Part shown: piece after piece, positions 2 to 35,200 of the stretch
Position numbering within the stretch: position 1 is the stretch's first letter
Layout: each line of letters begins with the position of its first letter
Assembly (NCBI GenBank): GCA_000004985.1
Contig: GG738863.1
Direction: 5' to 3' (one strand)
DNA: 64,000 bases
Origin: Naegleria gruberi
Taxonomy: Eukaryota
Notes under the pieces: model-generated
Databases searched by the model: none
Told to the model about the DNA's origin: nothing
What the model saw: only the letters and a program-made list of their open reading frames with translations
Program-made: the position numbers and the translations under genes

Positions 2-448
2 AAAATTGATGAATATGAAAAGGAATTATTTGGAGAAAAATTGGCTAATCCTGATAGTACTTTTATTTTGGGAGTTCAAATCAGAAAGAATTTACAGGAA
101 AATCTTTTCCACAATACTCCAGTGAGTATTTACTGGGACTGTGCAAAGCAAAGAATATCAGCCCTTGACACGAAAAAGTATAAGAAGGTCATTATCTTCC
201 TTACAAGTGATTATGTTCCTGCATATGATGAAGCCAAACATGTATTTAGTGAAATGAAAATTAAGGGAATTGAAATATCACTTGTTCACATGCCTCAAAA
301 CGTTCCAAAATCTAGATCTGTAGAATCTGTTCAAACTGCCTTGGTTGACTTGTATGTCATGATGAAAGCAGATGATTTAATTATGAGTGAAAAATCTACA
401 TGTAAGTTTATTGAAATATTTGACAATATTTACAAACTGGTTTGTTAA
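2..448 (+). CDS. 3'-terminal fragment of a glycosyltransferase-like protein (fucosyltransferase motif-III-like); the gene starts upstream of the window
   Basis: The open frame runs from window base 2 to TAA at 446-448 (ORF track 41..448). The C-terminal motif '...VDLYVMMKADDLIMSEKSTCKFIEIF' resembles the conserved C-terminal motif of GT11/GT23/GT65-type fucosyltransferases. The family assignment is weak. Confidence 0.3.
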   Translation, partial: KIDEYEKELFGEKLANPDSTFILGVQIRKNLQENLFHNTPVSIYWDCAKQRISALDTKKYKKVIIFLTSDYVPAYDEAKHVFSEMKIKGIEISLVHMPQNVPKSRSVESVQTALVDLYVMMKADDLIMSEKSTCKFIEIFDNIYKLVC

Positions 449-646
449 TCATTGCAAGTTGGTCATATTATTCACGCAACAGTAGGTATTGCTCCACTTT
501 TTGTCAGAAAGGAAGGAAAATATGAAAAGATTCCAAAATGTGTTAGAGCTCAAAATAGTGAACCTTGGTAAGTTATTTTTCGATATCAATATGTATTTAT
601 TAGATAATAGGTTCCATTTAAGATTTAGAAATCAACTCGAAAATTG

Positions 647-11971: not shown

Positions 11972-14764
11972 ATGCAACAACAACCTAGCGAACAAGACTT
12001 GACCAACTTTGGTATTTTGATGCAAAATACACTCAATCATGAAAATAATGTGAGAGTGAAGGGTATGTAGATTGTTGTAGGAATGTATATATAACGTATT
12101 TTTTAACAGCGGAACAAGATTTAAAGTTAATGGAAAAACAACCTGGTTTTGTGATGTTGCTCCTTACTTTTATTTCTAAACAATTAACTAACAAGTTTAT
12201 GGGTGCCCAATCGGCTATTATATTGAAGAATTTGGTGAAGAGAGATTGGGATGTTGGTTTGATTTTAAAAAACGAAGACAAGGAAATTATAAAATCAGGA
12301 GTTGTGGATATTATGATTAGAAGTGATCTTACAATCCAAGAAATTTTGTCAGAAGTAATTACAATCATTAGTTTACATGATTTTTACAAGAATTGGACAA
12401 CTTTACTGCCAGTAAGTTTATTATTTTCAACCATTTTCTTAAGAAATTTAGTATTTGGTTAATTTATTAAAAACAAACACTGATAAATTTGAATCCACTA
12501 GAGGTGTACTTGCCACTTGCCATTCACTTTTTAAGAAATATAGAGAACAAGCTAAATCCGACGAAATTGAAGATGAATTAATTTATATTATGAAAGAATT
12601 TGCCGAACCAATGTTAGGTTTATTCCAACATTTCATTTCCCTTGTCCCACAAATTACCGACCCAGCCAGCTTGAAATCAATTTTTACATGCATTAATTTA
12701 CTTTTGGAAATTTACTATTCTTTGAATTGGATTGATATTCCTGAATTTTTCGAAGATCACCTTCCAGAATATAGCAACATCTTCCTCTTCCTTTTGAATT
12801 ACCAAAATTCTTCCCTCGATAATAATCTCTATGAAGAACCAAGTCTTCTAGATACAGCTCAATCCCTTGTGTTCCAATCAATTAACTTGTATTTGGAGAA
12901 ATATGATGAAGCTTTCATTCCTTATGTTGAAAACTTTGCTACAGCAACATGGCAATTAATATCAAAGCTGGACATGAAGATCAAGTACGATAATCTTGTA
13001 TCTAAAGCTCTAGAATTTTTGACCGTCACAAGTAGAAGTGAAAAGCACATTATTTTCAAGGATGCACTTCCTGCAATTTGTGAAAATATTATCATTCCAA
13101 ACATCTCACTTCGTGAAGAAGATGAAATCATCTTCTCAGAAGAACCAATCGAATATATAAGAAGAGATATTGAAGGATCTGATTCTGACTCTAGAAGAAA
13201 ATCAGCTAGTGAACTCATCAAAACTCTTAGTATTCACTACGAAANNNNNNNNNNNNNNNNNNNNNNNNNNNNNNNNNNNNNNNNNNNNNNNNNNATTTGT
13301 ACATTCAGACAACACTTACCAATTGAATCATTCACCACCATCTTCCCATTGATTCTTAACTTGTTGAACTCCCCAGAACCTGTTGTTCTTTCTTATGCAG
13401 CTTGGTGTATTGAAAGACTTCTTACAGTCAAGGAAGATAATGGAAAGCCAAGATATTCCCAAGTTGAAATTTTGCCATATGCCCAAACATTATTGCAAGG
13501 ATTATTCTCTGCTTTGGATAACACTGAAGAAAATGAATATATTATGAAAGCCATTATGAGAGCTACAGCTGTATTGAAGGAACAAATGAAGCCAATTATG
13601 CCTGCATACATTTCCAAGATTACTAGCGTGCTTTCTGAAGTCTGTAAAAATCCAAACAATCCAATGTTTAACCACTATTTATTCGAGTCATATGCTACTG
13701 TAATCAAATTCAACAGTGATTACATTTCAGAGTTTGAAGCATCTCTTTTCCCACCATTCCAAACCATCCTGAACCAAGGCATTGAAGAATTCACACCTTA
13801 TGTTTTCCAACTTATTTCTCAACTTTTGACTGTAAGACAAGCTCCATTACCTGCTATTTATATTAGTTTGTTCCCTAATTTCTTACAAGCCCATTTGTGG
13901 GAAAGTGAAGGAAACATTCCAGGTCTCGTTGCCTTTACCTCCACTTTGATTACCAAGGCTCCTCAAGAACTTGGAAAGAATAATCAACTCGAACAAGTTT
14001 TGGGCATTTTCCAAACATTGGTCAAATCTAACACCAAAGACTACCATGGTTTCCGTATTTTGGACAGTATCATCCATGCTCTCCCATACGAAACTGTTGC
14101 TAATTTCCTCCAAGGAATTTTCTTCGTCTTGTTTGGAAGACTTCAATCTAAGAAGACTGGTCAATTCTTGAGATGTTTGATCCTTTTCTTCTCTAACTTT
14201 GCTGTTAGATATGGAGCTGATAAGCTTATCCAAGCCATTAATCAAATCCAAGCAAACATTTTCTCTCAACTTGCAAAGGCTGTGTGGCAATCCTCATTAA
14301 GAAAGGTTACAGGTAAAATTGAAAAGAAGGTCTGTGCTGTTGCTTTGATCAAGATTTTATTCAATACAGATCTTATTCAATCATCTGCTGACACATGGAA
14401 GATGCTTATTTCAGAGCTTGCTCTCTTCCTCAACCCAACAACAGATTCAAAGAATGAATTTGATGAAGATGATGAACAACATGACGATGAAGAAACAGTC
14501 CTTCAAACTGAAAAGGGAATTTCTGGAGGTTACAAAGTTACTTTCACCAAGCTCAGTTTTGCTGCTATGGGTATTGAAGATCCTGTACGTGAGGTTCAAA
14601 ATACCAGACTTCATTTCTGTCAATCTCTCACCAATTTCATTTCACCATTAGACCCACAACAAGTTCAGTTTGTTAAATCTTTAATTGTTTCTAATCCTGA
14701 ATCTGCTCAAGCCATTCTCGTTTTGATGCAAAACAATGGGTTCAGCACTTCGTTTTTACAATAA
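11972..14764 (+). CDS. CSE1: Exportin-2 (CSE1/CAS importin-alpha re-exporter), 3 exons
   Basis: Exons are 11972..12062, 12110..12411 and 12452..14764; introns are 12063-12109 and 12412-12451 (40 nt). Exon 3 contains the 50-N gap at 13245-13294. Extensive identity to CAS, for example 'RGVLATCHSLFKKYR', 'EDEIIFSEEPIEYIRRDIEGSDSDSRRKSA', 'ENEYIMKAIMRA', 'NPMFNHYLFES', 'EFTPYVFQLISQLL' and 'KKVCAVALIKIL'. Track ORF 12130..12462 is exon 2. Confidence 0.85.
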
Positions 14765-14783
14765 ATAATTTAATGAAAAATGT

Positions 14784-15815
14784 CTAATTGTCATCTTCCT
14801 TAAATGCTAAACAGAATGCTTGACCAATTTTTTCAATAATATTTGGAGTAGTAGTTGCTCGGTGATGGTCATGGAAAGCCAATTCAGCAGCTTTCTTAGT
14901 AACTAAACAACCACCATAGCATGCTGCTAACATTCTATCATCATGACCTATCTCACCTCCAGCTTTTCTATTAGCCCAAAAGCAGAATGTTGCAATGACA
15001 CCACTCAAAACATCACCTTGACCACCACATCTTCTTGGGGAGGCGTTAAATATATCACATTCCAAAACCTTATCTCCTTTAGCAATAATATCAGTCATTC
15101 CCTTTCTTACAATACAAACATCTCCAAGAGTTTTTGAAACGAAAATTATTTCCTCAGTTTCGTTTTTAAATTGAGAAATTGAGACCTTATTTTCATTGTT
15201 TGAATTGTGATACTCCACAACTGATTTCAATAAACGAGAAAATTCTGCAGGATTAGGAGTCAAGACAACATTTGAGTGTCCAACAATCAAGGCAGGATTT
15301 TCTCCAATTAAGAATAGGCCATCTCCATCCAACACCAATGGCATATTCAATTCCTTACAATATTCAATAAACCATTCTGCTTGTTGTAACATTTCTTTAG
15401 ATCTTCCAAGACCAGGTCCCAACACCACACTATTAAATCTCTTAAACATTGTTTCATAAGTTTTCCTCATAAATTCACTCAATTCCACCTTACTATTAAA
15501 CATTGATGGTATACTAGCCTCTGATTGACCATAAGAAATAGCAGATTTTTCAAATAAATATGGATAGACAACCAATTCAGGTGAATAATTTTTGATCATT
15601 AGTGCAGATTTTGAACAAATTACAAAAGACAAATCCGCACCAGTTTTCAAAGCACTAATTGCTGCATAATATGGAGCACCTGTATACTCCTCACATCCAC
15701 CAATAACAACAACTCTACCAGCCTCTCCTTTATGAAAATGATGAGTCAGAGGAGGAATAATAAATTGTCTAAGCTGCGAGAGAACAATTCCCGATGATCG
15801 AAGGTATAAAGACAT
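14784..15815 (-). CDS. NAXD: ATP-dependent (S)-NAD(P)H-hydrate dehydratase (CARKD/NAXD; YjeF C-terminal domain)
   Basis: Single-exon 343-aa ORF with 'HKGEAGRVVVIGGCEEYTGAPYYAAISALKTGADLSFVIC', 'LGPGLGR', and a C-terminal 'GGQGDVLSGVIATF'. Convergent with exportin-2, with 19 bp between stops. Confidence 0.85.
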   Translation of the reverse strand: MSLYLRSSGIVLSQLRQFIIPPLTHHFHKGEAGRVVVIGGCEEYTGAPYYAAISALKTGADLSFVICSKSALMIKNYSPELVVYPYLFEKSAISYGQSEASIPSMFNSKVELSEFMRKTYETMFKRFNSVVLGPGLGRSKEMLQQAEWFIEYCKELNMPLVLDGDGLFLIGENPALIVGHSNVVLTPNPAEFSRLLKSVVEYHNSNNENKVSISQFKNETEEIIFVSKTLGDVCIVRKGMTDIIAKGDKVLECDIFNASPRRCGGQGDVLSGVIATFCFWANRKAGGEIGHDDRMLAACYGGCLVTKKAAELAFHDHHRATTTPNIIEKIGQAFCLAFKEDDN

Positions 15816-15857
15816 TTTTTTGAAAATAAGCCAATTCTATTTTTAAACTTAAAAAAA

Positions 15858-16400
15858 ATGACCATTCTTGTGCCTCCAATTAACTTTGGTTATGTGCAGG
15901 AGAATGTCTTTCGATCGGGACAACCTACCTCTGTCAATTTCCCTCATCTAGCAACACTCAATTTAAAAACAATTATTTATTTAGCACCGGATCAACCTAC
16001 ACAAGAATTTGTAAATTTTGCAAAGGATCAAAATATTAATTTAATACACTTGACTAATCAATCTACGAAAATGAAAAAGAGTGGAACTTCTTCATCACAT
16101 ACAGGAATGGCACAATTGGGATTAATTTCGGAGGAAATTGTTGTTGAAGCTCTTGAAATAATTTTAAATAGAGAAAATTTACCTCTTGCTATTATGTGTA
16201 ATTTAGGTAGACATAGAACTGGAACTGTAGTTGGATGTCTTAGAAAAATACAACGATGGAATTTAACTAGTATTTTAGACGAATATAGAAGATATGCTGG
16301 CTCTAAAGTCAGATTACAAAACGAACAATTTATTGAATTATTTGATACAGACCTTGTTTCATTTAGGACTGACAACAAACCTGATTGGTTATATGATTAA
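15858..16400 (+). CDS. Plant-and-fungi-atypical dual-specificity (Siw14/OCA-like) protein tyrosine phosphatase
   Basis: 180-aa protein with 'FRSGQP...NLKTIIYL' and the CX5R P-loop 'MCNLGRHRTGTVVGCLRK', typical of the PFA-DSP family. It is transcribed divergently from NAXD; the two start codons are 42 bp apart. Confidence 0.8.
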   Translation: MTILVPPINFGYVQENVFRSGQPTSVNFPHLATLNLKTIIYLAPDQPTQEFVNFAKDQNINLIHLTNQSTKMKKSGTSSSHTGMAQLGLISEEIVVEALEIILNRENLPLAIMCNLGRHRTGTVVGCLRKIQRWNLTSILDEYRRYAGSKVRLQNEQFIELFDTDLVSFRTDNKPDWLYD

Positions 16401-16666: not shown

Positions 16667-18691
16667 TTGAAAATGCCCAAAACTTCATCAGCTGCTTCAA
16701 GTGCATCTTATTTGAGCAGCTCGACAAAGCTTCCTCGTCTCGGAAGTAGAAAAGTTATTGAGGAGGAGGATTGTCCAATTTCATCACCCGAAAGGGTGGA
16801 AAGACTTTCATCAGCCAATTCAAAACTTCAATCACCTAAAAGTAATTATTCAAGTCCAACTGCAAAATCAGGTGTTTCCATAAGGGAAAGAGCTTTTTCG
16901 AGAGCAAGGAGTGGAATGGTACAACCAATATTACTATCTAGTGATGATGAAGATGGAAATGGAGGAACATTTTACCTGACTGAGGTTGGGACGATGGCCA
17001 AGAAGAAATTAAGGAAAAAGAAAATTGTTGGATGGAATGTTAAGGAAGTTGAATTAACTGCTGATGGGCCACTTCCTTTTGAATTGAAATTTGATCCTTT
17101 AATTGATAATTTAATGAAAAATATAAGAATTTCTGATTCGGATATTAAAGCAGTGTTTGAGAAGAATTTCAGTCCATACAATCATTTAAATAGGAGTATC
17201 ATACAGAATTCTTTCTGGTTTGTCTATTCATTGTTTTTCCAGGATAAACCAGAAGTTTGTGAGAGATTCATCTCTGAACTATCACTTGATAGTGCAAAAT
17301 TTGCTCTCAATTTAGGAAGGCATCACAGAGATGCCTTTTTTGAAGTGTATCATTTAGCTGTTGCATATTGTATTTTGAAAGCTTTGAGGAAACATTTTTC
17401 TGCTTGTAAAAAGTTGTTTACAACAAATTTCAAGGTTAGAGTTTACGAGGTTATATGTGAAGTGTTTTTAGGAATTAGATATAAGAGAGAATTCCTGCAC
17501 AGTCAACGAACAAAATATTTTCCAAAGAAGAGCGAAGATACCTTCTTTGAGAAGCTATTGAGGAAACAATCTAAAAAGTCAACAGAAACTTCAAAATCTA
17601 AAAAGAAAGAAGTTGATCAGTCAACTGTTTCTAAATCGACAACAGCACCTAGACCTGATTCAGCATCAGAGAAGGAATTTTATTCATCTAGTGAAGAGGA
17701 AGAAGAAACTCCAGACGAAATGGAAGAAATAGATAATACCTCAAAAGATCACATTTCTGATCAAATTCAAAAACTTGGTCTTGATGAAAATTATCATGCC
17801 CTCCCATCAGAAGTTTTAGAACAAGAGATTGAAGCAATCGAGAATAGAAAGAAGAAACTTAAATTAGCCAATAAGGAAGCATCTAAAAGTAATGTCGAAC
17901 AAGGCAAGAAACAAAAGGAATTGAGTCCAAGAATTAGAAATCCTGAATACTTTAAATACTTTTCAAATGGTCAGACAGCTCCAATGCAAGACAAGTATTG
18001 GTATACATTCCAAATGTCTCCACTGATGTTAAAAGCACTGAGGAAACCTCCAGCAGAATTTGCCTTGAATTACACATCACCCGAACTGGGTAAAAACAAA
18101 GTAAGACTAATTCACAAAGATGGTTTCTCAAAACCAATCTTCTTTGGAAGTCTGTCCGATCCAAATAAGCTTGTCAATAATGTGAAAAAATTCCAAAAAG
18201 TGTGGAATCCTGATAGTATAGAGGAAGTTGAGAAGGTTCGTCAAAGGCTCAAGACCAATAAGGAAATGAGGAAAAGAAGTACACAAGAATCTGATAGAGA
18301 TATTCGGTGGATTAAAGGGAGTACTAGGGAGGAACTGAGGGTGATCGAACAAGAAAAGAGGGAAGTGCTCCAAAATAAGGACTCTGTATCAAATGTTTGC
18401 AACCAAATAATTAAGAAGAATATTGAAGAATCAACCTCACGAGCAGAGAAACGATATCAAACTGTTCCTTCTTCTAACTTTAAAGGAAGTGCGTTTGCTA
18501 CAGTACTACATGAAAATTATAATACCATGAACAAAAAACTTCAAAAACTTGACAAGCTCCTTTCTACGACTGGTGATAGATGTTTAATAACTAAGGAACA
18601 ACATTTGAAAGAGGAAGAAGATCTTGGGACTGATCTTGATAAGAAAGATCCACCAAAAGCTCTTAATGTATCCTTATTTGATTATCTGTAG
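16667..18691 (+). CDS. Hypothetical Ser/Lys/Glu-rich protein (674 aa)
   Basis: Long ORF with clean codon usage but no recognisable domain. It has basic and acidic low-complexity stretches. Confidence 0.4.
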   Translation: MKMPKTSSAASSASYLSSSTKLPRLGSRKVIEEEDCPISSPERVERLSSANSKLQSPKSNYSSPTAKSGVSIRERAFSRARSGMVQPILLSSDDEDGNGGTFYLTEVGTMAKKKLRKKKIVGWNVKEVELTADGPLPFELKFDPLIDNLMKNIRISDSDIKAVFEKNFSPYNHLNRSIIQNSFWFVYSLFFQDKPEVCERFISELSLDSAKFALNLGRHHRDAFFEVYHLAVAYCILKALRKHFSACKKLFTTNFKVRVYEVICEVFLGIRYKREFLHSQRTKYFPKKSEDTFFEKLLRKQSKKSTETSKSKKKEVDQSTVSKSTTAPRPDSASEKEFYSSSEEEEETPDEMEEIDNTSKDHISDQIQKLGLDENYHALPSEVLEQEIEAIENRKKKLKLANKEASKSNVEQGKKQKELSPRIRNPEYFKYFSNGQTAPMQDKYWYTFQMSPLMLKALRKPPAEFALNYTSPELGKNKVRLIHKDGFSKPIFFGSLSDPNKLVNNVKKFQKVWNPDSIEEVEKVRQRLKTNKEMRKRSTQESDRDIRWIKGSTREELRVIEQEKREVLQNKDSVSNVCNQIIKKNIEESTSRAEKRYQTVPSSNFKGSAFATVLHENYNTMNKKLQKLDKLLSTTGDRCLITKEQHLKEEEDLGTDLDKKDPPKALNVSLFDYL

Positions 18692-18692
18692 T

Positions 18693-21138
18693 TTATTCCA
18701 TTAAATCAATTAATTGTTTGATAAATCTCAAATCACTAGCATTATCACGCTTTTCGCTTAAAACTTTCCAATAAAGAGAAAAATCATTCAGATTAGTTTT
18801 TTTCCTAAACCTCAAGTAGCTTGTGAAAAGTTGACTTGCCTTTTTTACCCTTCCTCCAAAGAAAAGCTTGGTTCTTTCCTGATACTCAGAGGCTTGATCT
18901 TCATATGGTAATAAATTATTAGAATAAAAATCATTGACCTCTCTCACTAGAGACATGTAAGGATACTTTAAATTCACATATGATTTCAAAAATATTCTAT
19001 TCAGTTCACTAACAACCTTTTCATCTCCTTTGTCAGTCTCAGAAAATTTGGATCTCACAATTAAACAAATTAGAGTGTCATAATTATGTTTTGATTCTAT
19101 TAGATCGGGTGGTGGATTCGAAATTACCTCCTCATCCAGTAAAGAATCAACATAATTGGTATTAGTAATTCTTAAATGTGGAATGGAAGACCTTAAATCG
19201 GATTTGATTTGAAAACTCCTATAATTGTTCGTAAAGTTGATACATTCGAATCCTTCGAAAAACATTGGAGGGAATTGATTAAAATCATTCACTGCCTCCT
19301 TGATATCTTCAATTGAATCGAAGAAGAGTTGCTTGACTTGATCTTTCCAATTGTATTGCTCTCCCAAGTCTCTCCAAACAATTTCCTCTTTCATTGTACT
19401 GAGGTTTCTACATCCACAATAAATAATTCTTCCTGATTGAGGTTGGTATGTGAAAAAGAAAGTAAAATTACTATTTTGTTCTGTTGGTTTCTTCATATCT
19501 AATTTTTCCCATAATTTTAAGAACGGCTCAGATATTTCATTTACAAAATCTCTATCCAAAATCCATTCATTTTGCCATTTCTGACTTTCGTTACCAAAGC
19601 TAAATCTCCATTCATTTCTATAATAGTACAAATTAACTCTGGTGCCAGAAGGGTTCTCTAATATTGCATAGTCTGATAGTTTTAGCTTAGTAGTGAATCC
19701 ATTGCCATGTCTTTTATCCAAGTTGTGATATTCTTCAGACAAGAACCTTGGCACACATAAAGGAGAGTAATGAGTCTCATTCTCGTTAGAAATGGCTTCT
19801 ATTATAGAACCATTACATTCCAAATACAAGTCCATTTCTCTAAAACTTAATGAGTTTTCTGCTTCTTGGAATACAAAGTCAATATCCAATTTGAAAAGAT
19901 TGCAATCATTTGGATTTGAAACGTTATCTCCCTCAATAAATATAGGTGTTACACTAATACCAAATACTCTATTTAGTGAAAAAGGTCCAAAGCTTAAAGT
20001 GATATTTTCGTAATCTCTCCTTTTAAAAGTAGATTCCTTGGAAAATGTTGTGACAAACTTATTCAAAATATCAGAAACTATTAAATTAGACTCCCTCTCC
20101 ATGGATAAACATTCTTTTCTGCATTCTCTCATAACAGCTTTAATATCCTCTTTATATTCAACCATCCATTTATCGTAAAGTGTTTTAACCAACGATTCAT
20201 ACTCTTCCCAGGTTGTATAATTGTCTGTTCCATAAACCACTTCATCATAAAGTGCATTTGTTTCCAAATAATCATAAATACACCCTCCAAACGCAATTTG
20301 ATATCCATATTTACAAAATCTAACAATTAAAGTTAAAAAAAATAAATTAAATAATTACATACCTAATTCCATGAGCCAAATTCTTTTTGACTTTTTTCAA
20401 TGCATCCTTCTTCTCCTTTTCTGTGATGTATTGCCCTTTTTGAAGACCTACCCAAAAACGGTGTGCCTTATTGAAACTAAAATTCAATTCATGTAATATT
20501 GCATTTCTTGATCTTGGCAATCTCAAAAACCAGCTATTCCAATTTTCTCTCCATCTTTTCATCTTTTCATCCTCGAATACTACAAATGCATCATTTGGTT
20601 GTTGTACTGAAAGTAAAATGACAGGTAAATGAATATGAGCATAGCCCAGTAAAACAGAAGTGTTCATCATCATAACCTCAAGCTCATAACTGACTAATTG
20701 ACCATTTGAATCAGAAACTGTTATTTCACTATGTAAATTATATTGAGTATTTCTTGAATAACCTCCGTCTGATGAGTTTGAGGAACAGAGATCATCAGCA
20801 ATAAATAATAAATCAAAATCAGAATCATTGACATTAGTATTAAACACTCTAGATCCATACAANNNNNNNNNNNNNNNNNNNNNNNNNNNNNNNNNNNNNN
20901 NNNNNNNNNNNNNNNNNNNNNNNNNNNNNNNNNNNNNNNNNNAATTTTCCCTGACATGATTCAATAGCTGATCCGATGAGAAGGGAACCCCTTCCGAGCC
21001 TTTCTTATAATTTTTACTTGGCCTACTCGACTCAGGTTCATACTTTTCATTGTATTTTAAAGCTTTAACCTCCGAGCCATTGTCAGATTTTGTTAAGGAG
21101 GCCTCTGATGAGCTTTGAATCATTTTTTTAAAGTTCAT
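18693..21138 (-). CDS. Nucleotidyltransferase-fold (polymerase-beta superfamily) protein with a large uncharacterised C-terminal domain; 2 exons
   Basis: Exon 1 is 20363..21138 and contains the 80-N gap at 20863-20942. Exon 2 is 18693..20319. The intron is 20320-20362 (43 nt, GTATGT..TAG), phase 2, joining '...HGI-R-FCKYGYQIAFGG...ETNALYDE...'. The NTase signature is 'LYGSRVFNTNVNDSDFDLLFIADD' (hG[GS]-x8-DxD). The 520-aa C-terminal part has no match I recognise. Confidence 0.45.
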
Positions 21139-21618: not shown

Positions 21619-22368
21619 ATGAGAAAGACATTGGTACTTGACCTTGACAATACTCTTGTTGCATCATTTTCAACAAGTAAAGCACAATTACTAGGATCTT
21701 GTGATTATGTTGTGTCAATACCAAGAGAAAAATATCATGACACAATCACAATAGCTGTCTTTAAGAGACCACATTTAGAAGAGTTTTTAGATGTTGCTTG
21801 TAGTTTATTTGATGTTTGGATTTTTACAGCTTCCGATAAATCATATGCTCAACCTGTTTGTGAAAATTTACTGAACAGTAAGGAAAGATTTAAAGGATGT
21901 CTATTTAGAGATTCACTGGTAAAAGGAGGAAAGGACTTGTCGATATTTAATGTAAATATGGATCAAATAATGATTATAGACGATGATGAATTTAATTTTC
22001 AAAATAATCCAAAAAGTAAGTACAAAAAAACTATTTAAATTAAATTTTGAAAAGATGGTGTTACCATTAATTCATTTGGATTTGATACTATTACAATACA
22101 GAAAGAGTTAAGATTGGATCATGAGCTCAGAGATTTTATCCCTCTTCTGAAATCTGTTGCAGACTCTCCAACTGTATTTGAACCAATATTACAATATAAG
22201 CAATTCCACTCGAGCAATTTCCAAAATTGTGACATTTCCCCATTAACATCCTCTTCCTCTAATACACCAGCTGTCACATCTTTCCATGCATTTTCACCTT
22301 TCGATGATATGAATGATGAAAAATCCCCAAACTCTGCAACTTCAGCAAGTTCTGACATTTTAATTTAA
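21619..22368 (+). CDS. NIF/FCP1-like HAD phosphatase (CTD small phosphatase-like), 2 exons
   Basis: Exons are 21619..22015 and 22055..22368; the intron is 22016-22054, phase 1. The DxDx(T/V) motif is 'LVLDLDNTLV'. Other matches are 'RPHLEEFLDVACSLFDVWIFTAS' and 'LRDFIPLLKSV', consistent with the SCP/Dullard family. Confidence 0.75.
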
Positions 22369-22640
22369 AATCCTTGTAAACTAACAAATAATTCCATAAA
22401 GAATTTTTGAATAATAGCAAATCCATTATTGTTTTTATCTAGCTCGCTAAGTCTTTCGATGTATTAAGAAATTTTCAAAGCATGATAAAAAATTTGAATT
22501 TTATTGGACTTGGTGAACATTGAGATCAAAGCACAACTACTAAGTCTTATTGATTTTCAATTATCCAGTAGTATTATTATTTTAAAAAGAACAAGAAATG
22601 AAAAAAAGCAAAATTGTAATTTTTTAATCCAACAAAAAAA

Positions 22641-22951
22641 ATGTTAGGCAAATCCACTCAAAGTCTTTTCTACAATCTCATCTGGAAGAGAACCTCAACA
22701 ACCGCTTTGTTCGTCGGTGTTGGTGCTCTCTGTTTTGAACAAGTTGTTGATAGAGGTATCGATGCTTTCTGGGATAACTACAACAAGGGTGTAAGTTTTT
22801 GGATAATCAAAATAATATTTAACTAAAATATCGGATGCGCAAACATCATCAATATCATCTTTTTATTATAAATAATTACTAACAGAGACAATTCAAGGAC
22901 ATTGAACCAATCTACAGAGAAAACGGATGGCTCAAGGAAGAAGAAGAATAA
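22641..22951 (+). CDS. QCR9: Ubiquinol-cytochrome c reductase subunit 9 (QCR9/UQCR10, 7.3 kDa), 2 exons
   Basis: Exons are 22641..22790 and 22886..22951; the intron is 22791-22885 with a TACTAAC branch-like motif just before the AG. The product 'MLGKSTQSLFYNLIWKRTSTTALFVGVGALCFEQVVDRGIDAFWDNYNKG|RQFKDIEPIYRENGWLKEEEE' matches the QCR9 architecture: TM helix, 'W..NKGK', acidic tail. Confidence 0.7.
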
Positions 22952-23404
22952 ATTTAATCTTCTCTATTTTTGAACACAACAACAACATCTTCTATTTCAT
23001 AGGGAAAATTTTAAAACATAATGAAGGAATCTAATCGATTATCTTTGATAACAATAAAAAAAGCTTTAAATTATAATTTAAATAGTATCCTATTCTAATT
23101 AACAATTTCAATAATTGGTAATGTTATTAATCTGGTTCGACATCAAACTACATTCCAAAAGTACAATTCATTTTCATCATGTAAGGTTCTTCAATCATAT
23201 GAAAGTACATTGTTGGATTGAAAAGGGATGACTTTGATCTGTGCAAAAACACGTATTTATTCCTTCCTCGTTTTTGCACGCCATCAAGACATTAAGTCCA
23301 GGTTAGTCCTTTCGTTGGTTGTGTGAGAGAATTATAAATTAAATCGAATTGCTGATCCACGTCTAACAAGAAACAATTCGATAAAAAATTACAAGATAAA
23401 AAAA

Positions 23405-24835
23405 ATGAAGAGCATTATCATCGCAATCTTGATTGCTCTCTTTGCTTGCACTTTTGTGTTTGCACAAGATTCTGTTGTTGATCTTACATCAAAGAACTTT
23501 GAAGAAAAGTTACAAGAAAAGGAATTTGCCTTGATTGAATTCTTTGCTCCATGGTGTGGTCATTGTAAGAAATTGGTCCCTGAATATAATAAGCTCGCTG
23601 AAAAGTTTGCTACCAATGAAAAGGTTAACATTTTCAAGGTTAATGGTGACCAAGAATCTGATGTCATGTCTAAGTTTGAAATTCAAGGTTTCCCAACTAT
23701 CAAGTTGTTCAAGAATGGTAAATTCTTCAGAGATTATGATGGTGAACGTACTGCTGATGCTATTGCTTCTTGGTTGCACAAGAAGACTGGTCCTGTCAGT
23801 ATTCCAATTGAATCTGCTGAAGCTTTGGATCAATTGAAGGCTTCCTCTAAGGTTATTGTTGTTGGTTTCGTTTCATCAAAGACTTCTGAAACCTACAAGA
23901 AGTTCCTCCAAGCTGCTGATGATAAGGATTTGGAAGAATTCATTGTTGCTGAAGTTGTTGACAATGCTGAATTGAATGCCAAATTCGATATTAAGCAAGA
24001 TTCTGTTGTTGTTATCAGAGATTTTGATGCTACTCCTGCTGTTTCTACTGATTTCGATGCTATTGCCACTTTTGTCAAGGATAATGGTTATCCATTGGTT
24101 GATGAAGTTAGTGGTGCTACTTTCCAAAGATTTGTTGATAAGGCTTTGCCAATTGGTGTCCTTTTCATTGATTTCTCCAATGCTGAAACTAAACAAAAGC
24201 ACGTTGAAGAATTGAACGAAATTGCTCAATCATTCAAGGGTAAGGTTTCATTGGGTTACTCTGATGCTGCTGTTTATGGTGGTCAATTGGAAGTTATGGG
24301 TGGTAAGAAGGATGCCATTCCAGGTTTCGCTGTCATGGATTTGGAAACTAGATCAAACTATCCACTCAATATTGATACTGTTAATAAGGAAGAAATCATT
24401 GCTTTCCTTACCAAGGTTTTGGCTGGTGAAGTTCCAAAGTTCTTGAGATCTCAAGAAATTCCAGAAGAAAACAATGAAGCTGTTAAGGTTGTTGTCGGAA
24501 AGTCATTTGATGATTTGGTTATTAACAATGATAATGATGTTTTGCTCGAATTCTATGCTCCATGGTGTGGTCACTGTAAGTCACTCGAACCAAAGTACAC
24601 TCAATTGGCTGAAGAATTGAAGTCTGTCTCTGGTTTGGTTATTGCCAAGATTGATGCTTCTGAAAATGATACTCCAATCAACATTGAAGGTTTCCCAACC
24701 ATTTACTTCTTCCCTAAGGGTGGTAAGGCTTCTCCAGTTTTGTATGAAGGTGATAGAACTGTTGAAAGCTTAAAGACTTTCTTACAAAAGAATGCTGTTG
24801 GTGCTGTTTTCACTGAAAAGAAGGACGAATTGTAA
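23405..24835 (+). CDS. PDI: Protein disulfide isomerase (a-b-b'-a' architecture)
   Basis: It has a signal peptide. Two thioredoxin active sites read 'APWCGHCK' at about aa 48 and aa 387. The ER-retention tail is 'KKDEL'. Single exon. Confidence 0.9.
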   Translation: MKSIIIAILIALFACTFVFAQDSVVDLTSKNFEEKLQEKEFALIEFFAPWCGHCKKLVPEYNKLAEKFATNEKVNIFKVNGDQESDVMSKFEIQGFPTIKLFKNGKFFRDYDGERTADAIASWLHKKTGPVSIPIESAEALDQLKASSKVIVVGFVSSKTSETYKKFLQAADDKDLEEFIVAEVVDNAELNAKFDIKQDSVVVIRDFDATPAVSTDFDAIATFVKDNGYPLVDEVSGATFQRFVDKALPIGVLFIDFSNAETKQKHVEELNEIAQSFKGKVSLGYSDAAVYGGQLEVMGGKKDAIPGFAVMDLETRSNYPLNIDTVNKEEIIAFLTKVLAGEVPKFLRSQEIPEENNEAVKVVVGKSFDDLVINNDNDVLLEFYAPWCGHCKSLEPKYTQLAEELKSVSGLVIAKIDASENDTPINIEGFPTIYFFPKGGKASPVLYEGDRTVESLKTFLQKNAVGAVFTEKKDEL

Positions 24836-25460
24836 ATTTACATTTTAAACCCAATCTCTAAATAAATATATTTATTCATAAAAAGTTATTCTTCAATCAA
24901 TAATTAGAACTTCAACAATATTAAGGTTGTTTTCAAAAGAATTTAGTTGTACTATTATTGCACAGCTGTTTTCTGTAGATGAGAAAATGGACAAAAAAAT
25001 CACAAGTAAATGATCAACAATTAAAACTAGTGAATGTAGTGTTCGATATCGATAGAAAAGAGAATAACCACATACATTGTTTGGTTGGAATTAGTGTTAT
25101 TTTAACATGGGTATGACTCATAGTAGGAAATAGATGATGTTCATAAAATGGTTGAAGTACAAACAAAGAAGAAAATAGAGGATAATGGATGACAATTTAA
25201 AGTTTTTAAATTATGTGGATGACAAATTTCTTCATATGAAACTCCAATGTAAAATATTATTCAATATTAAATTATATTATAAATTTGTTTTATTTATCGC
25301 GGAAGAGAGATTATCATTAAAATTTTAATTGGTTCTATCAATTAACAACAATTTTCTCTTCGCCAGGTGTTCTTTTTGTAAACGGTTGACTTGGTCATTG
25401 GTAACAAATTTGTTTTTAAAAAAAAAGTCTCTACGTAGATTTATCCACCATTATATAAAA

Positions 25461-26110
25461 ATGTCGAACAGTTTCAATCTTTTGGAACACGCTTCAAACA
25501 GCGATCCACTCGAAATTGCTTCATCTGCCAAGAAGGAAGTTAAGCAAGAAAAGCCAAAAGTTGAAGAAAAGAAGCCAGTTCAACAACAAAGAAAGCCAAA
25601 GCCAACTTCTGCTCCATCCGAAGTTGTCGAAGAAGGTTTCCAAGGAACCCGTTCTAAGACTAGAGGTGGTAGACAACAACACCAAGGATACCAACCACCA
25701 AAGAAGGGTAGAACTTTCGATCGTCATGTCTCTGGTACTGGTANNNNNNNNNNNNNNNNNNNNNNNNNNNNNNNNNNNNNNNNNNNNNNNNNNTTCCAAA
25801 AGGAAAAGAAGAAGGTTGAAAAGGCTGCTGAAAAGAGTCTGCTGCTTCTAAGCCAAAGACTGTTGCTGTTTCTGAATTCTTAGATACTGCTTCAATTGAA
25901 AAGATCAAGGAAAGAAGAGATAAGGAATTGTTGGAAGGTCCAAAGCAACCAAGAGGTCCAAGACAAGACAGACCAGAAAGAACTGATAGAAAGGGTGGTA
26001 AGCCACAAAACAAGGGTCAAAAGGGTGCCAAGCCAGCCTCAGGCCAAAAGAAGCCACGTCCAGTCATCAACAAGGAAAAGGACTTCCCTGCTCTCAGCCC
26101 ACAAAACTAA
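25461..26110 (+). CDS. Stm1/SERBP1/HABP4-family mRNA-binding, ribosome-associated protein; interrupted by a gap and an apparent frameshift
   Basis: N-terminus 'MSNSFNLLEH...RGGRQQHQGYQPPKKGRTFDRHVSGTG' (Stm1_N-like). The C-terminus 'PRGPRQDRPERTDRKGGKPQNKGQKGAKP...KEKDFPAL' is typical of the family. The 50-N gap at 25744-25793 and a +2 frame change near 25838 (AAEKS|SAASKPKTVAVSEF) split it into three track ORFs. Confidence 0.6.
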
Positions 26111-26162: not shown

Positions 26163-26861
26163 TTATTCATAATTTATTTTAGCACTTTTCCATGTTTTTC
26201 CCCAATTTTCATCTGTTTGAATATGACCCTTTCTTACATACTTGGCAATATTTCGTTCAAAATCCTTGTTTGCAAATGTTTGAGTTGATTTGATAACAAA
26301 TCCTTCTAGACCTTCTCCTCCTCCGACTTGACTAATCTTCTTATCTTTAATTCTTTCATCCATCCATTGTTTAATTTCATCAAGAGAAGTGAATGTACCT
26401 CTGTATAGAACTGGAACAATTGGAACCATACTCGATAAATCATTATCATTAATAAAATTGATCATTTCATCCCATCCATACCATCTATTATCTTGTAAAT
26501 CTAAAATTGCAAATAAATAAAAGTATGATTTCAAATTATTATATTCTATAGAGTGAATTCCGTACATATTCTCTCCAAACAATACTAAATGATCAGGTAT
26601 CAGAAATGAAAATTGAGAATATAATTGTTTGATAGGTCCAAAACTTGCATGTGTTGCCTCCTTATTTGTTGTTCTAGCAAAGATCTTTCCTTGAAATAAT
26701 TGACAATTGCCACCATCCATCTTTTCGGTAATAATCACTTCTTGACCAACAAATTGTGTACAATGTTGATTGGAAAGTACAACATCATCATCTTGATGTT
26801 CGGGAGAGAATGGTAAATGTGGTGTTTTTGGATACTTTTGTGTTTGAAATTTAGATGCCAT
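26163..26861 (-). CDS. ATP-dependent RNA ligase-like nucleotidyltransferase domain protein (Rnl2/PF09414-like, stand-alone)
   Basis: 232 aa. Motif I is 'ITEKMDGGN' (KxDG with the lysine nucleophile). Motif III-like is 'LFGENMYG'. Motif IV is 'EGFVIK'. Motif V is 'KYVRKG'. No kinase or CPD domains are attached. Confidence 0.6.
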   Translation of the reverse strand: MASKFQTQKYPKTPHLPFSPEHQDDDVVLSNQHCTQFVGQEVIITEKMDGGNCQLFQGKIFARTTNKEATHASFGPIKQLYSQFSFLIPDHLVLFGENMYGIHSIEYNNLKSYFYLFAILDLQDNRWYGWDEMINFINDNDLSSMVPIVPVLYRGTFTSLDEIKQWMDERIKDKKISQVGGGEGLEGFVIKSTQTFANKDFERNIAKYVRKGHIQTDENWGKTWKSAKINYE

Positions 26862-27540: not shown

Positions 27541-27614
27541 AAATAAAAAATACGCCGTAAGGGAGTCGAACCCTTGACCTTCAGCGTGTAAAGCTGACGA
27601 TCTAACCAACTGAT
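27541..27614 (-). tRNA. tRNA-Val (anticodon UAC)
   Basis: The reverse complement GCGCCGTTAGATCAGTTGGTTAGATCGTCAGCTTTACACGCTGAAGGTCAAGGGTTCGACTCCCTTACGGCGTA folds into a canonical cloverleaf with a 7-bp acceptor stem (G1·U terminal pair). The D-arm is GATC/GATC with an AGTTGGTTA loop. The anticodon stem is TCAGC/GCTGA, the loop is TTTACAC (anticodon TAC). The T-arm is AAGGG-TTCGACT-CCCTT. The discriminator is A. There is no intron and no encoded CCA. Confidence 0.85.
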
Positions 27615-27821
27615 CTAACGGCGCTTGCAACATTTCCAAAAAATTTCCTAACTAATCAAATCAACATTAAAATCCTAAATGTAAACTTGTCCTTTTTCTT
27701 GTTCTTAATAGCTATCAGTAAAGATAAAGTAAATTTTCATTTCTTCTCCTCACTTTCAATAGTTTCATCAAATAATAAATTTATATTTAAATAAATTCGC
27801 AAATGAACAAGAAGTAAAAAA

Positions 27822-32212: not shown

Positions 32213-35200
32213 ATGGATAGAGGAGGTTCATCATCCAGTCAAAATGATCTGATGAACTCTCCGAATAATACAAATCCAACAAATTTAGACTTGTTCAATA
32301 TTATTAAAGAGTTGGTAACAAAAGTAAAGTAAGTGCAAATTATTGTAAAGAATAGAGAGGATTTATTAATAATCGGAATAGTTCGTTGGAAAATCAAGTG
32401 ACTGATCTTAAAAACCAAATTTCAGCCTCTTCTTCTTCATCATCTAATAGTAATAATAATAGTAGCGAACCTAAGAAAAAGAAAAAAGAGGAAAAGAAAT
32501 CAAAGAAAGAGGATAAGAAGGATGTTAAAACCAAAGAAAATAAGAAAACAAAGAAGAATGAAAAAAAGAAAAAGTCACAACAATTATCTCCTTCTACACC
32601 GCCTCTACTTGAGCAACCTCTTCCTCCTCCTTCTGTAGAGATTCCGATTCCTAGTGCTGAAGTGTTGGATGATTTAACGCCTCCGATTATGGAAGAAACA
32701 TGTGAAGTTTCCTTGTTGGCACAACCAAATTTTGTTGAGCAAATGCTTCAAATGGATGAAATTGAGGAAGATAGAATGTATGAATCTCATTCACATTATG
32801 AACCTGGAGATGAGTATGAAAATGTAATGGATTTGGATGAAGCTGAATATTGTGATATAAGTGATGAAGATCCAGAAAGAATAGAACATGCAAGAGAGGA
32901 AGATCTCTTGAAAAGAAAAGAGGAAGAGGAATGCACAAATGAGGATTTACTTGGATTATCAAAGCAATTCCCTCAAATGATGTTGGATAAATTATACTCA
33001 CATCAAAAGAGAGGAGTAAAGTTTCTTTGGGAAAATCTTGCAAAGGGAAATGGCTGTATTCTTGCTGATTTTATGGGCATGGGAAAAACTTTACAAACAG
33101 CTTCGTATGTATCATGATCATTATGAAATAATTTATTAACATTGAAAGATTTTTACATATATTTTTCGCTGAGAAGCAAGCTAAAACTGCTCTTATTGTT
33201 TCACCAGCATCTGTAAATACTCATTGGGAAAGAGAATTTAAAACAATTGAAAAATGGGTTTCTGATCCTAATATTTCATGTATTAAACCTTTCCTACTCT
33301 CATCAAAGAACTCAATTCAGGATAGAAAAAAAACAACAGCAAATTGGCAACAAAATGGTGGTGTTATGATAACATCCTATGATATGTTTAGAACACTTTG
33401 TGTAGATGAAGATTTTAAGGAATATTTACTAAACCCAGGACCTGATGTCATAGTTTTGGATGAAGGGCACAAAATTCGTCATTTATCTTCAAAAATTACT
33501 CGTGCTTTAAACTCTGTAAATACACAAAAGAGGATAATTTTAACTGGATATCCATTTCAAAACAATTTATTGGAATATTGGACAATGATTAATTTTGTAT
33601 GTCCAATGTACTTGGGAGAAAAGAATGAATTCAAGAGGAAATATTCCAAGCCAATTCAAAAAGGACAACTCTCCAAAATACCCTATGAACGTAGAATAGC
33701 TAGAAGAAGATCATGGCTATTATATGAAAAAGTTAAATCCATCATTTTGAGAAGAGATGCATCCCTTTTGAAAAAGTTGTTGCCTCAAAAACAAGAAATT
33801 CTATTGACCTTGTCAAATAGTGAAATTCAAAGAAAAATGTACAAAATTCTGATTGATTCTCTCAAATTAATTGGAAAGCCGAGTATCTTCTGGACCTATG
33901 ATGTGGTTATCATGCTTTGTAATCATCCAGATGTTCTGTATAATTACTATAAGTGGAAAGAAAAACAAGCAGAAACCCAAAAAATTGAGAAGGAAGCCAA
34001 AGATTCTAAAAAGAAGGAAAAAGAATCGTATTCAGCTGAAGAAGAAACAAATAATGGTGAAGTGTTTGATCCCTCAATAGATGATGAGGAGATAGAATCA
34101 TACATAGATAAAGAGGTTGATACTGGGGAAGAAGGAAAAGAACCTCAAAAGAAGGATAGTACTGAAGCAATAGCAAAAACTATTTTATCAGAAATATTTA
34201 AATGTCCAGAAAATATGGGATACAAGAGAGGAGCACTAGATAATGGAGGTAAAATGATACTCTTATTCAGTGTTATGTTTCAATGTAAAAGCGTAGGAGA
34301 TCGTCTCATAGTATTCAGTAGAAGTATTAACACCTTGAATTTCATTGAAAACACTCTTAAACGATACAATAAGGATAAGGATGCAAAAGGTCAACTTAAT
34401 TTTATGCGATTTGATGGAAGTACTCCATTTGATCAAAGACAATCCTGTATCGATAAGATTAACGATAATACTAACAATATTACAGTTCTACTTATTTCAA
34501 CACTTGCCGGTTGTGAAGGTATTAATTTAATGGGAGCAAATAGAGTTGCACTCATTGATGTAAATTGGAACCCTTCTCATGATAGTNNNNNNNNNNNNNN
34601 NNNNNNNNNNNNNNNNNNNNNNNNNNNNNNNNNNNNNNNNNNNNNNNNNNNNNNNNNNNNNNNNNNNNNNNNNNNNNNNNNNNNNNNNNNNNNNNNNNNN
34701 NNNNNNNNNNNNNNNNNNNNNNNNNNNNNNNNNNNNNNNNNNNNNNNNNNNNNNNNNNNNNNNNNNNNNNNNNNNNNNNNNNNNNNNNNNNNNNNNNNNN
34801 NNNNNNNNNNNNNNNNNNNNNNNNNNNNNNNNNNTTAAAGAAAATACCAAGTGGATCAAACGAGCAGATTTTAGAGATCAATTATTACGAGATGATCCTC
34901 TCAATATTCTGACTGAGGAAGAAAAACAGTTGGCTCATAGCGAAAATGAATTTGAATCTGTTTATGGAGCTAAAAGAAATTATGATAGGAAAAAAGTAGA
35001 TTCAACTCAAGAACAGAAAGCCAAAGCAACTACTGTCCCAACGATACCTAAGAGGCCAGAAGAGCCAATTAATACCAATTATCTCAAAGATCAGGAATCG
35101 CTTTGGTTGAGAAGACAACAAATAATAGTGGAAAAGGAAACTGTAGAAGCCTCAAAGCTTTTACAAATTTTACAAACAAAAGATATTCCACTAACAGTTG

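Follow-up and report, generated by a model that had tools for sequence, protein, structure and literature searches.

The name RlaP was reportedly given by Burroughs and Aravind in 2016. RlaP nucleotidyltransferases (NTases) add one or two NMPs to RNA 3′-OH ends and are defined by their genomic association with RNA ligases (PMC12776372); they are predicted to replace lost nucleotides ahead of ligation (PMC7824862). For the RNA ligase T4 Rnl1, roles have been assigned to individual residues, including the nucleophile, the metal-water ligands and the residues contacting the α- and γ-phosphates; R54, which contacts the γ-phosphate of ATP, is essential (PMC6379707). N. gruberi has an unusually large set of RNA repair enzymes (PMC4408790). 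Here we describe a gene, located in a 64,000-nucleotide stretch of N. gruberi DNA (the window, that is, the whole stretch analyzed), in which an NTase and an Rnl1-derived module are part of one polypeptide. We propose, with a probability of about 60%, that it encodes a two-module RNA-end-processing protein, in which a competent NTase is coupled to a pseudo-ligase that recognizes RNA for 3′-end nucleotide addition.

The window product is 98% identical to an N. gruberi predicted protein (EFC45506.1 / XP_002678250.1). The public model of this gene differs from ours at both ends; it is wrong at both and hides the NTase domain (Table 1). A preliminary description of the locus had joined two ORFs in frame across a 43-nt intron and treated them as a single gene, and both the splice and the alignment to homologs bear this out. 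Excision of the intron brings the ORFs into frame through a split Arg codon and rebuilds KKNLAHGIR followed directly by FCKYGYQ (KKNLAHGIR-[FY]CKY). In every intron-independent homolog this motif is unbroken and invariant, which lends the splice good support. The region 3′ of the intron comes to 541 aa, compared with the earlier figure of about 520 aa. The 80-N gap is likewise found in the NTase exon, as had been reported, and the reading frame is kept across it as given (196 nt + 80 nt = 92 codons). Since homologs read through the same position without a break, the two flanks of the gap belong to one gene. The spacing from 'HVR' to 'LYGS' is 23–25 residues in gapless homologs as against 29 implied in the window gene, and roughly 21–27 NTase residues fall inside the gap.

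Table 1. Features of the window gene (positions within the window; residue numbers refer to the window product unless marked T4)
Feature	Positions	Strand	Details
Whole coding region, NAEGRDRAFT_66737	18693..21138	(-)	Product 800 aa, 27 gap residues counted; from ORFs, splice and translation
Exon 1: N-terminal leader, NTase core and most of helical domain	20363..21138	(-)	Homolog alignment
N-terminal module, aa 1-321	20133..21138	(-)	Pol-beta-type NTase domain and helical bundle (HEPN/KNTase-C-like) second domain
Assembly gap, 80 N, in exon 1	20863..20942	.	Hides ~21-27 codons just upstream of NTase hG[GS] strand
NTase signature LYGSRVFNTNVNDSDFDLLFIADD, aa 93-116	20791..20862	(-)	G95-S96 (20851-20856), D107 (20818-20820), D109 (20812-20814)
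Strand YELEVMMMNT with third catalytic carboxylate	20659..20688	(-)	E154 (20677-20679); clade alignment and hhalign vs RlaP
Helical-domain motif KKVKKNLAHGIR, aa 248-259	20319..20397	(-)	Intron within span; K252, N253, H256 and R259 invariant across whole fused family
Intron, 43 nt, GTATGT...TTAG	20320..20362	(-)	Phase 2; splits Arg259 codon between AG and A
Exon 2: end of NTase helical domain and entire ligase-derived module (aa ~366-800)	18693..20319	(-)	TAA stop 18693-18695 included
'ECRG'-equivalent element	19809..19991	(-)	ECNG (19809-19820) replaces Rnl1 ECRG; T4 R54 = N428; hhalign
Degenerate motif I hairpin ILENPSGTRVNLYYYRNEWRFSFGNE	19587..19664	(-)	T4 K99 = N481 (19653-19655), D101 = S483, G102 kept = G484; hhalign and hmmalign
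Motif III equivalent NFTFFFTYQ	19443..19469	(-)	Metal/ribose-binding T4 E159 = F547
Motif IIIa region IIYCGCRNLS	19398..19427	(-)	T4 R182 kept = R563
Motif IV FFEGFECINF and motif V YRSFQIKSDL	19194..19262	(-)	E614-G615 kept; T4 K240 = Q629; T4 K242 kept = K631
All-helical C-domain, aa 637-800	18696..19187	(-)	Homologous to Rnl1-type C-domain; AF2 helices pLDDT 72-93

An assembly gap inside an exon, a public gene model that differs at both ends and the missing catalytic residues of the ligase (see below) might together be taken to mean that the locus is mis-assembled at the gap, or that it is a pseudogene with a neutrally drifting ligase part. This explanation is effectively refuted. The reading frame stays open for 800 codons, its intron is precisely placed, and N. 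fowleri, N. lovaniensis, Willaertia magna, Balamuthia and many metagenome contigs all encode gap-free proteins of the same single-polypeptide architecture. The N. fowleri ortholog (FDP41_002753), with 52% identity, is also syntenic. Furthermore, the ligase-like module retains about 65 invariant positions at 35–52% identity among species, and such conservation across genera would not result from neutral decay.

The N-terminal module is a Pol β-superfamily NTase with a fold like that of HalB/ANT enzymes and a core like that of RlaP. A Pol β-type NTase had already been recognized in the preliminary description, which set it apart from both PAP/TUTase and OAS/cGAS/Mab21 enzymes. Our searches agree on both counts, as the nearest relatives are minimal NTases (PF18765, PF01909), the HalB/ANT two-domain NTases and RlaP. 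In the hG[GS] element (L-Y-G95-S96), Gly and Ser are invariant, both in six clade members and across a diverse set of 14 from the family; the metal-binding [DE]x[DE] pair (D107-F-D109) is invariant in the clade and the same 14-sequence wider family. A third acidic residue, for which the preliminary description had only suggested a search downstream of this pair, is present as E154. It is invariant in the clade, is matched by D or E in 12 of the 14 wider members, falls within a strand predicted by AF2 and, in hhalign alignments, stands opposite the invariant third Asp (D62) of T4 NrdC.11-type RlaP. The gathering score of Pfam PF18765 is passed by five of the six homolog N-termini (31 bits, with the cut-off at 26.9). 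Of the 14 wider family members, 13 match this Pfam family. The window protein alone scores 16.7 bits, below threshold, only because its NTase domain loses its first strand and helix to the gap. A search for homologs with the N-terminal profile found only five proteins and no annotated outgroup. When the profile was built from 14 sequences, it matched solved minimal NTases (E 9e-6), and the best PDB sequence matches of the NTase are MNT antitoxins and ANT enzymes. The AF2 model of the module has a pLDDT of 84. With its triad conserved, the enzyme is apparently active and probably template-independent.

The NTase core is followed by a helical second domain. Two His/Arg-rich segments listed in the preliminary description (GYAHIHLPVIL and RNAILHELNFSFNKAHRF) are indeed there, and we can now assign them to this domain, which carries the family-invariant K-N-x-x-H-x-x-R motif. 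In the comparison with RlaP we used T4 NrdC.11-clade sequences, confirmed as genuine by PF10127 (45.9 bits). The N-terminal family matched them in hhalign at 92% probability (E 6e-7) over 89 columns of the NTase core only, including the strand with the third acid. When the helical domains alone were compared, the best local hhalign match was KALSHAxR...G, which is not significant by itself (E 0.005–0.03, probability <10%). PF10127 (threshold 23 bits) did not match the window protein or its clade; in the wider family it matched five of 14 members, all below threshold (best E 2e-4). A PDB search with T4 NrdC.11 as a query yielded no solved RlaP structure among the entries searched. Thus, the window NTase appears RlaP-like at its core and is at most a candidate member of RlaP.

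The C-terminal half, which the preliminary description could not place, turned out to be a divergent full-length T4 Rnl1-type ligase, consisting of an N-subdomain, an adenylyltransferase domain and a helical C-domain. When the window protein was scanned directly against Pfam, NCBIfam and PDB sequences, this half matched nothing and the NTase gave only a sub-threshold match. PF09511 did not match any of five clade members, even at E<=5. The ligase link is visible only by profile searches, so direct scans could not identify the C-terminal half. An exhaustive profile search with this half collected 73 relatives, and distant relatives of 320–400 aa pass PF09511 (RNA_lig_T4_1) at 51–79 bits. In hhalign, T4 Rnl1 together with seven canonical ligases matched the window family at 99.3% probability (E 1e-20) over 285 columns, covering T4 residues 46–349. 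The alignment carries on through the C-domain (T4 residues 255–349, window aa ~640–765). In Foldseek searches with the C-terminal model, the top three matches were all T4 Rnl1 (E 1e-8), with 411–453 columns aligned and low TM-scores; the AF2 model of this half is itself only moderate (pLDDT 70.6). Both the covalent-nucleotidyltransferase (adenylyltransferase) fold and the Rnl1-specific N-subdomain are found in the window protein. The C-terminal profile also produced a PDB match to pyruvate dehydrogenase kinase (E 0.04), which we dismissed as chance, as it involved only a helical stretch and structure searches gave no support.

We then mapped the T4 Rnl1 active site onto the window protein. YLECNG was considered as motif I and rejected, since hhalign places YLECNG at the Rnl1 'ECRG' element and identifies motif I as 'ENPSG'. 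The motif I hairpin is modeled by AF2 as two well-predicted antiparallel strands (pLDDT 79–86). In place of KxDG it reads E-N481-P-S483-G484, and the N. fowleri ortholog reads the same, including Asn at the K99 position. The position of T4 R54 is occupied by Asn, invariant in the clade, and that of T4 E159 by Phe or Tyr throughout the clade. The Rnl1 KFFN element is not conserved in the window protein, where the region reads VPRF...EEY. The E227-G228 pair (T4 numbering) is kept in the window protein; other clade members lose either E-G or both motif V lysines. The conserved aromatic/Cys clusters that had been singled out in the C-terminal region (NLYYYRNEWRFSFGNE and YCGCRNLS) are real, and they are not marks of a novel domain: one is the degenerate motif I strand (ENPSG-TRVNLYYY) and the other the motif IIIa region (CGCRN). 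Judging by these residues, the window ligase module is a pseudoenzyme that keeps its fold, with substitutions at the nucleophilic lysine and at most of the positions that bind ATP and metal.

How this state is distributed in the family is informative for a bifunctional alternative, with the NTase trimming or filling in RNA 3′ ends and the ligase sealing them, either through a non-canonical nucleophile or through later, lysine-independent steps on AppRNA. The complete set of catalytic residues is present in all of the 30-odd stand-alone relatives and in no NTase-fused member; each of the fused relatives (Naegleria, Willaertia, Balamuthia, metagenomes) has lost at least three. In favor of such an enzyme, the ligase architecture is preserved as a whole, down to the C-domain that confers substrate specificity, and E-G of motif IV remains together with one lysine of motif V. 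The motif I lysine is still found in several paralogs and relatives (P0003, P0005, P0009 and P0085), and P0085 also keeps motifs IV and V; because of relatives of the P0085 type, residual nucleotide binding or partial ligase chemistry is possible in the family. In addition, T4 Rnl2 and NgrRnl can synthesize a phosphodiester at a pre-adenylylated end without the motif I lysine. Separation of the N-domain and step 3 has been noted as well (PMC4408790). Against sealing by the window protein stand the Asn in place of the nucleophile, shared with the N. fowleri ortholog, the substitution of all of R54, D101, E159 and K240, which serve ATP binding, metal coordination and transition-state stabilization, and the bulky aromatic residue at E159 across the clade. 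We therefore consider this alternative very unlikely. The loss of ligase catalysis appears to be old and maintained.

The fused family has undergone lineage-specific expansion in amoebae, with at least three paralogs in N. gruberi. A search for orthologs in 'other amoebozoa' had been suggested; N. gruberi belongs to Heterolobosea rather than Amoebozoa, and one family member does occur in Balamuthia. Unciuleac & Shuman 2015 listed seven Rnl1 members for N. gruberi, and the window gene is not one of them. We also considered and rejected descent from giant viruses, or a connection to them, as two IMG/VR scans, one with the C-terminal and one with the N-terminal profile, gave no relatives. In the genome, an intact Rnl2-type ligase adjoins the window gene. 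This linkage is part of general Naegleria synteny and is not retained in Willaertia, so we do not count the neighboring ligase as functional evidence.

Expansion of this kind is typical of conflict systems, and it is one reason to consider that the protein might be a sensor–effector. According to this explanation, the pocket of the pseudo-ligase would bind a nucleotide or a modified RNA end (AMP/ATP, AppRNA or a cap-like structure) and switch on the NTase, whose output would be a signaling oligonucleotide, or nucleotidylation of a protein or small molecule, rather than RNA repair; HalB in Hailong defense and MNT-type AMPylation offer parallels. The MNT antitoxins and ANT enzymes at the top of the PDB matches fit this explanation, as does the survival of part of the nucleotide pocket (motif IV E-G, R182 and K242). 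PADLOC candidate-defense NTase models also matched, but the matches are weak and confined to the generic NTase core. No defense-type neighbors or effectors were seen in the genomic context, which is one of ordinary housekeeping synteny. Moreover, R54, D101, E159 and K240, the residues contacting adenine, ribose and phosphates, are all replaced, and replaced differently between paralogs, which argues against a conserved nucleotide ligand. On balance, we regard a sensor–effector role as unlikely.

The most likely role of the pseudo-ligase is that of an RNA-end-binding module of an RNA-repair-type enzyme. We infer NTase activity, RNA as its substrate and RNA binding by the pseudo-ligase. A non-RNA acceptor is possible, as the structural neighbors of the NTase include ANT and KNTase, which have small-molecule substrates, and HalB, which produces signaling oligonucleotides. 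The dead ligase module would keep the substrate-recognition role of its ancestor and bind broken or structured RNA, such as tRNA-like stem-loops and 5′-phosphate or 3′-OH ends. It would then offer the 3′ end of this RNA to the tethered NTase for the addition of one or a few nucleotides. Sealing, if any, would be done in trans by one of the many intact ligases of Naegleria. The proposed addition to RNA 3′ ends is the reaction that has been shown for bacterial RlaP; in bacteria and phages, RlaP is encoded beside RNA ligases. The conservation of a ligase half that no longer serves in catalysis suggests that ligase scaffolds have a role in substrate recognition.

A more far-reaching version, which we put forward as a long shot, is that the dead Rnl1 ligase serves as a dedicated 'reader' of damaged or marked RNA ends, hard-wired to a nucleotide-adding enzyme, in an expanded and previously unrecognized amoebal family (Naegleria, Willaertia, Balamuthia). 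If so, the family would represent a ligase-independent pathway of RNA end-tagging or signaling, in which, for example, cleaved tRNAs or mRNAs are marked for decay, rescue or immune signaling, and it would include the first documented case of a pseudo-RNA-ligase acting in regulation. Apart from such a role, the analysis yields a testable hypothesis for what was an anonymous 'predicted protein' and adds at least three genes, unlisted in the published ligase census, to the large RNA-repair repertoire of N. gruberi. The family offers a natural system for asking what the Rnl1 fold recognizes once it no longer ligates, and an ortholog is present in the pathogen N. fowleri.

How does the window protein compare with known systems? 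With respect to the T4 Rnl1 family (PF09511; 2C5U, 5TT6, 9DO4), its ligase module differs in having a dismantled active site and in following a Pol β NTase rather than forming a protein of its own. The covalent-nucleotidyltransferase fold also has non-catalytic derivatives, such as the m3G-cap-binding domain of snurportin-1 and the ligase-like domain of poxvirus A22. However, these domains come from the capping-enzyme and DNA-ligase branches, not from Rnl1, and lack a fused Pol β NTase; the window module is far less similar to them than to RNA ligases. HalB (the Hailong anti-phage NTase, 9DBH) and ANT/KNTase share 8–12% sequence identity with the window NTase and have no fused ligase-like module. 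Their acceptors, self-primed DNA and aminoglycosides, have no evident link to the architecture of the window protein.

The comparison with RlaP goes further. Both RlaP and the window protein have an N-terminal NTase with GS, DxD and a third acid, followed by a helical domain, and both RlaP and the window family display a K-x-L-x-H-x-x-R-(x11)-G motif with identical spacing, a similarity that is not statistically significant. Unlike RlaP, the window protein falls below the PF10127 threshold, its partner ligase is, by its residues, predicted to be catalytically dead, and its host is a eukaryote. Both are tied to RNA ligases, RlaP as an operon neighbor in bacteria and phages and the window protein through covalent fusion to a degenerate Rnl1-derived module. 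The operon partnership between RlaP and ligases thus appears here as a eukaryotic gene fusion, whose ligase half is apparently non-catalytic yet conserved.

The closest database match to the product of the two-exon gene was the N. gruberi 'predicted protein' NAEGRDRAFT_66737 (EFC45506.1; 98% identity), and every peptide string quoted in the preliminary description was found in the window. The spliced coding sequence comprises 800 codons in frame. Its splice divides an Arg codon (AG/A) and rebuilds the peptide KKNLAHGIR-FCKYGYQ, contiguous and invariant in every homolog, so the intron is real. The assembly gap in exon 1 keeps the frame at the length given. At this position homologs carry 23–25 residues between 'HVR' and 'LYGS' and read straight through. 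Therefore, the gap hides about 21–27 codons, and its two flanks are parts of a single gene, as had been proposed for the two ORFs. The public model (631 aa) appears to contain two errors: it removes ~21015–20717 by splicing, taking the gap and the catalytic core of the nucleotidyltransferase (NTase) with it, and it introduces a 40-nt 3′ intron (18899–18938), causing a frameshift that truncates the C-terminal helical domain. The alignment of homologs is continuous across both disputed regions.

Features of the gene, its product and its neighborhood (T4 residues refer to T4 Rnl1)
Feature	Position or residue	Strand	Description
Exon 1	21138..20363	minus	ORF, splice and translation
Assembly gap	20863–20942		80 N
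Intron (43 nt)	20362..20320	minus	GTATGT...TTAG; in-frame join of both exons
Exon 2	20319..18693	minus	ORF, splice and translation; ends in TAA
FWWh gene	16667–18691	plus	convergent; 674 aa; PF14922
Rnl2-type RNA ligase	26163–26861	minus	intact, stand-alone; 232 aa; PF09414
tRNA-Val	27551–27624	minus	anticodon UAC
N-terminal module	aa 1–321		NTase sheet, then helical bundle (AlphaFold model)
C-terminal region	aa ~366–800		divergent Rnl1-type ligase
T4 R54 ('ECRG')	N428 ('ECNG')		γ-phosphate contact
T4 K99	N481		nucleophile
T4 D101	S483		motif I
T4 G102	G484		motif I; kept
T4 E159	F547		motif III
T4 R182	R563		kept
T4 E227-G228	E614-G615		motif IV; kept
T4 K240	Q629		motif V
T4 K242	K631		motif V; kept

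The N-terminal NTase assignment made from the sequence alone holds. Complete homologs pass PF18765 (31 bits versus the 26.9 cut-off), and 13 of the 14 members of the wider family, which are much more distant, match both PF18765 and PF01909. The window copy scanned alone falls below the Pfam threshold only because the gap takes away the start of the domain. The family profile also matches solved minimal NTases (E = 9e-6), and AlphaFold modelled this module confidently in an ortholog without the gap (pLDDT 84, pTM 0.79). The catalytic triad is intact: G95-S96, D107-x-D109 and the third carboxylate, E154, whose presence had been left to be checked, are all invariant in the six-member clade. Across the wider family G-S and D-x-D remain invariant and the third position is acidic in 12/14. 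A K-N-x-x-H-x-x-R...Q...G motif in the helical domain is likewise invariant.

We then considered kinship with RlaP (PF10127; the name stands for 'RNA ligase-associating Pol-beta'). Pfam gave only sub-threshold PF10127 matches, in 5/14 wider-family members. A profile built from T4 NrdC.11 (confirmed PF10127, 45.9 bits) and five phage homologs matched the NTase core with 92% probability (E = 6e-7), aligning E154 with the invariant third Asp of RlaP. In the helical domains the alignment brought K-x-L-x-H-x-x-R-(x11)-G into exact register but fell short of significance. On these grounds the kinship, as judged by profile comparison, is probable but unproven.

The C-terminal domain had been considered unplaceable, and direct scans against family and PDB sequences indeed returned no match. 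However, an exhaustive profile search detected 73 relatives, the closest being full-length homologs and the distant ones (320–400 aa) bona fide PF09511 T4-Rnl1-type RNA ligases (51–79 bits). T4 Rnl1, its sequence checked against PDB 2C5U, was aligned with seven canonical relatives; compared with the window family, this profile matched across 285 columns with 99.3% probability (E = 1e-20). T4 residues 46–349 are covered, from the N-subdomain through the adenylyltransferase domain to the helical C-domain. The AlphaFold model of this half is of moderate confidence (pLDDT 70.6) with a well-predicted core, and Foldseek returned T4 Rnl1 as its top match (E = 1e-8, >400 columns). The profile and structural matches thus identify the region as a divergent but complete Rnl1-type ligase.

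In Trl1 and T4 Rnl1, residues responsible for lysine adenylylation, metal–water coordination and contacts with the α- and γ-phosphates are essential (PMC6379707). Judged by its residues, the ligase site of the window protein is dead, catalytically dismantled. The pattern among relatives is binary: every stand-alone ligase has the full catalytic set, whereas in every NTase-fused relative (marked by the KN-x-x-H-x-x-R motif) three or more catalytic residues have been lost, always R54, nearly always D101 and usually E159. The motif I lysine, absent here, is kept in some paralogs. A bifunctional enzyme with non-canonical ligase chemistry seems improbable.

FDP41_002753 of N. fowleri, the closest relative at 52% identity, is the positional ortholog, both genes being flanked by FWWh, NIF-phosphatase, PDI and Stm1/HABP4 genes. 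Its lysine position is likewise occupied by Asn, so the loss is ancient and stably inherited. The ligase-derived module persists at 35–52% identity with ~65 invariant positions and therefore shows, at the sequence level, the marks of selection on a pseudoenzyme rather than of decay. An artefact or pseudogene is contradicted by this conservation and by orthologs without the gap, and is very unlikely indeed. At least three paralogs are present in N. gruberi (NAEGRDRAFT_66737, _68423 and _81464), none of them among the seven Rnl1-family accessions of the published Naegleria ligase census (PMC4408790). There are several copies each in N. fowleri, N. lovaniensis and Willaertia magna, and one in Balamuthia mandrillaris (Amoebozoa); Naegleria itself, earlier taken for an amoebozoan, is a heterolobosean. 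Further members occur on metagenome contigs; none were found on IMG/VR viral contigs.

As for the neighborhood, 1 nt separates the end of the FWWh gene from the stop codon of the NTase–ligase gene (18693), so the 3′ UTRs must overlap; in N. fowleri this convergent pair is conserved, 72 nt apart. The highly conserved Rnl2-type ligase (motif I EKMDGGN, motif IV EGFVIK, motif V KYVRK; 76–78% identity to Willaertia and N. lovaniensis orthologs) lies ~5 kb away. This proximity is kept in N. fowleri and N. lovaniensis within a larger syntenic block (ligase-HABP4/Stm1-PDI-NIF-...). Since the linkage is not retained in Willaertia, it probably represents synteny, not a functional cluster. The tRNA-Val gene lies between this ligase and a U1-type zinc-finger gene. 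Other neighbors (12455–16400 and 21619–25883) belong to the usual housekeeping set of eukaryotes: CSE1/CAS exportin, NAD(P)H-hydrate dehydratase, Y_phosphatase2 tyrosine phosphatase, NIF/FCP1-like phosphatase, protein disulfide isomerase and a Stm1-like protein. Six more N-runs occur (13245–13294, 25744–25793, 34587–34834, 47907, 57542–58056, 60930–62398), the second breaking the Stm1/HABP4-like ORF. The N. fowleri ortholog has a PAP/TUTase-like gene for a non-canonical poly(A) polymerase (VFQX01000030.1, 16980–18134; PF22600, PF01909, PF03828) 4.5 kb away, on a side that shows no synteny to the window.

In bacteria, RlaP extends RNA 3′-OH ends by one or two nucleotides, preferring damaged RNA, and its genes adjoin RNA ligase genes (PMC12776372); it has been proposed to replace nucleotides missing from cleaved RNAs ahead of ligation (PMC7824862). 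The most economical reading of the architecture, to which we assign a probability of about 0.6, is that the NTase half would perform RlaP-kind nucleotide addition at an RNA 3′ end. The ex-ligase half would grip a broken tRNA-like RNA through its N-subdomain, nucleotidyltransferase surface and helical C-domain, holding it without sealing. The NTase activity, its substrate and this binding role are our inferences. Alternatively, though rather doubtfully, the protein might be a HalB-like sensor–effector, its remodelled pocket binding a ligand and the NTase making a signal. The fusion of an NTase with a pseudo-Rnl1 is apparently undescribed in the literature searched. RlaP-like NTases and Rnl1 ligases are both already known kinds; here they are fused, and the ligase is inactivated.
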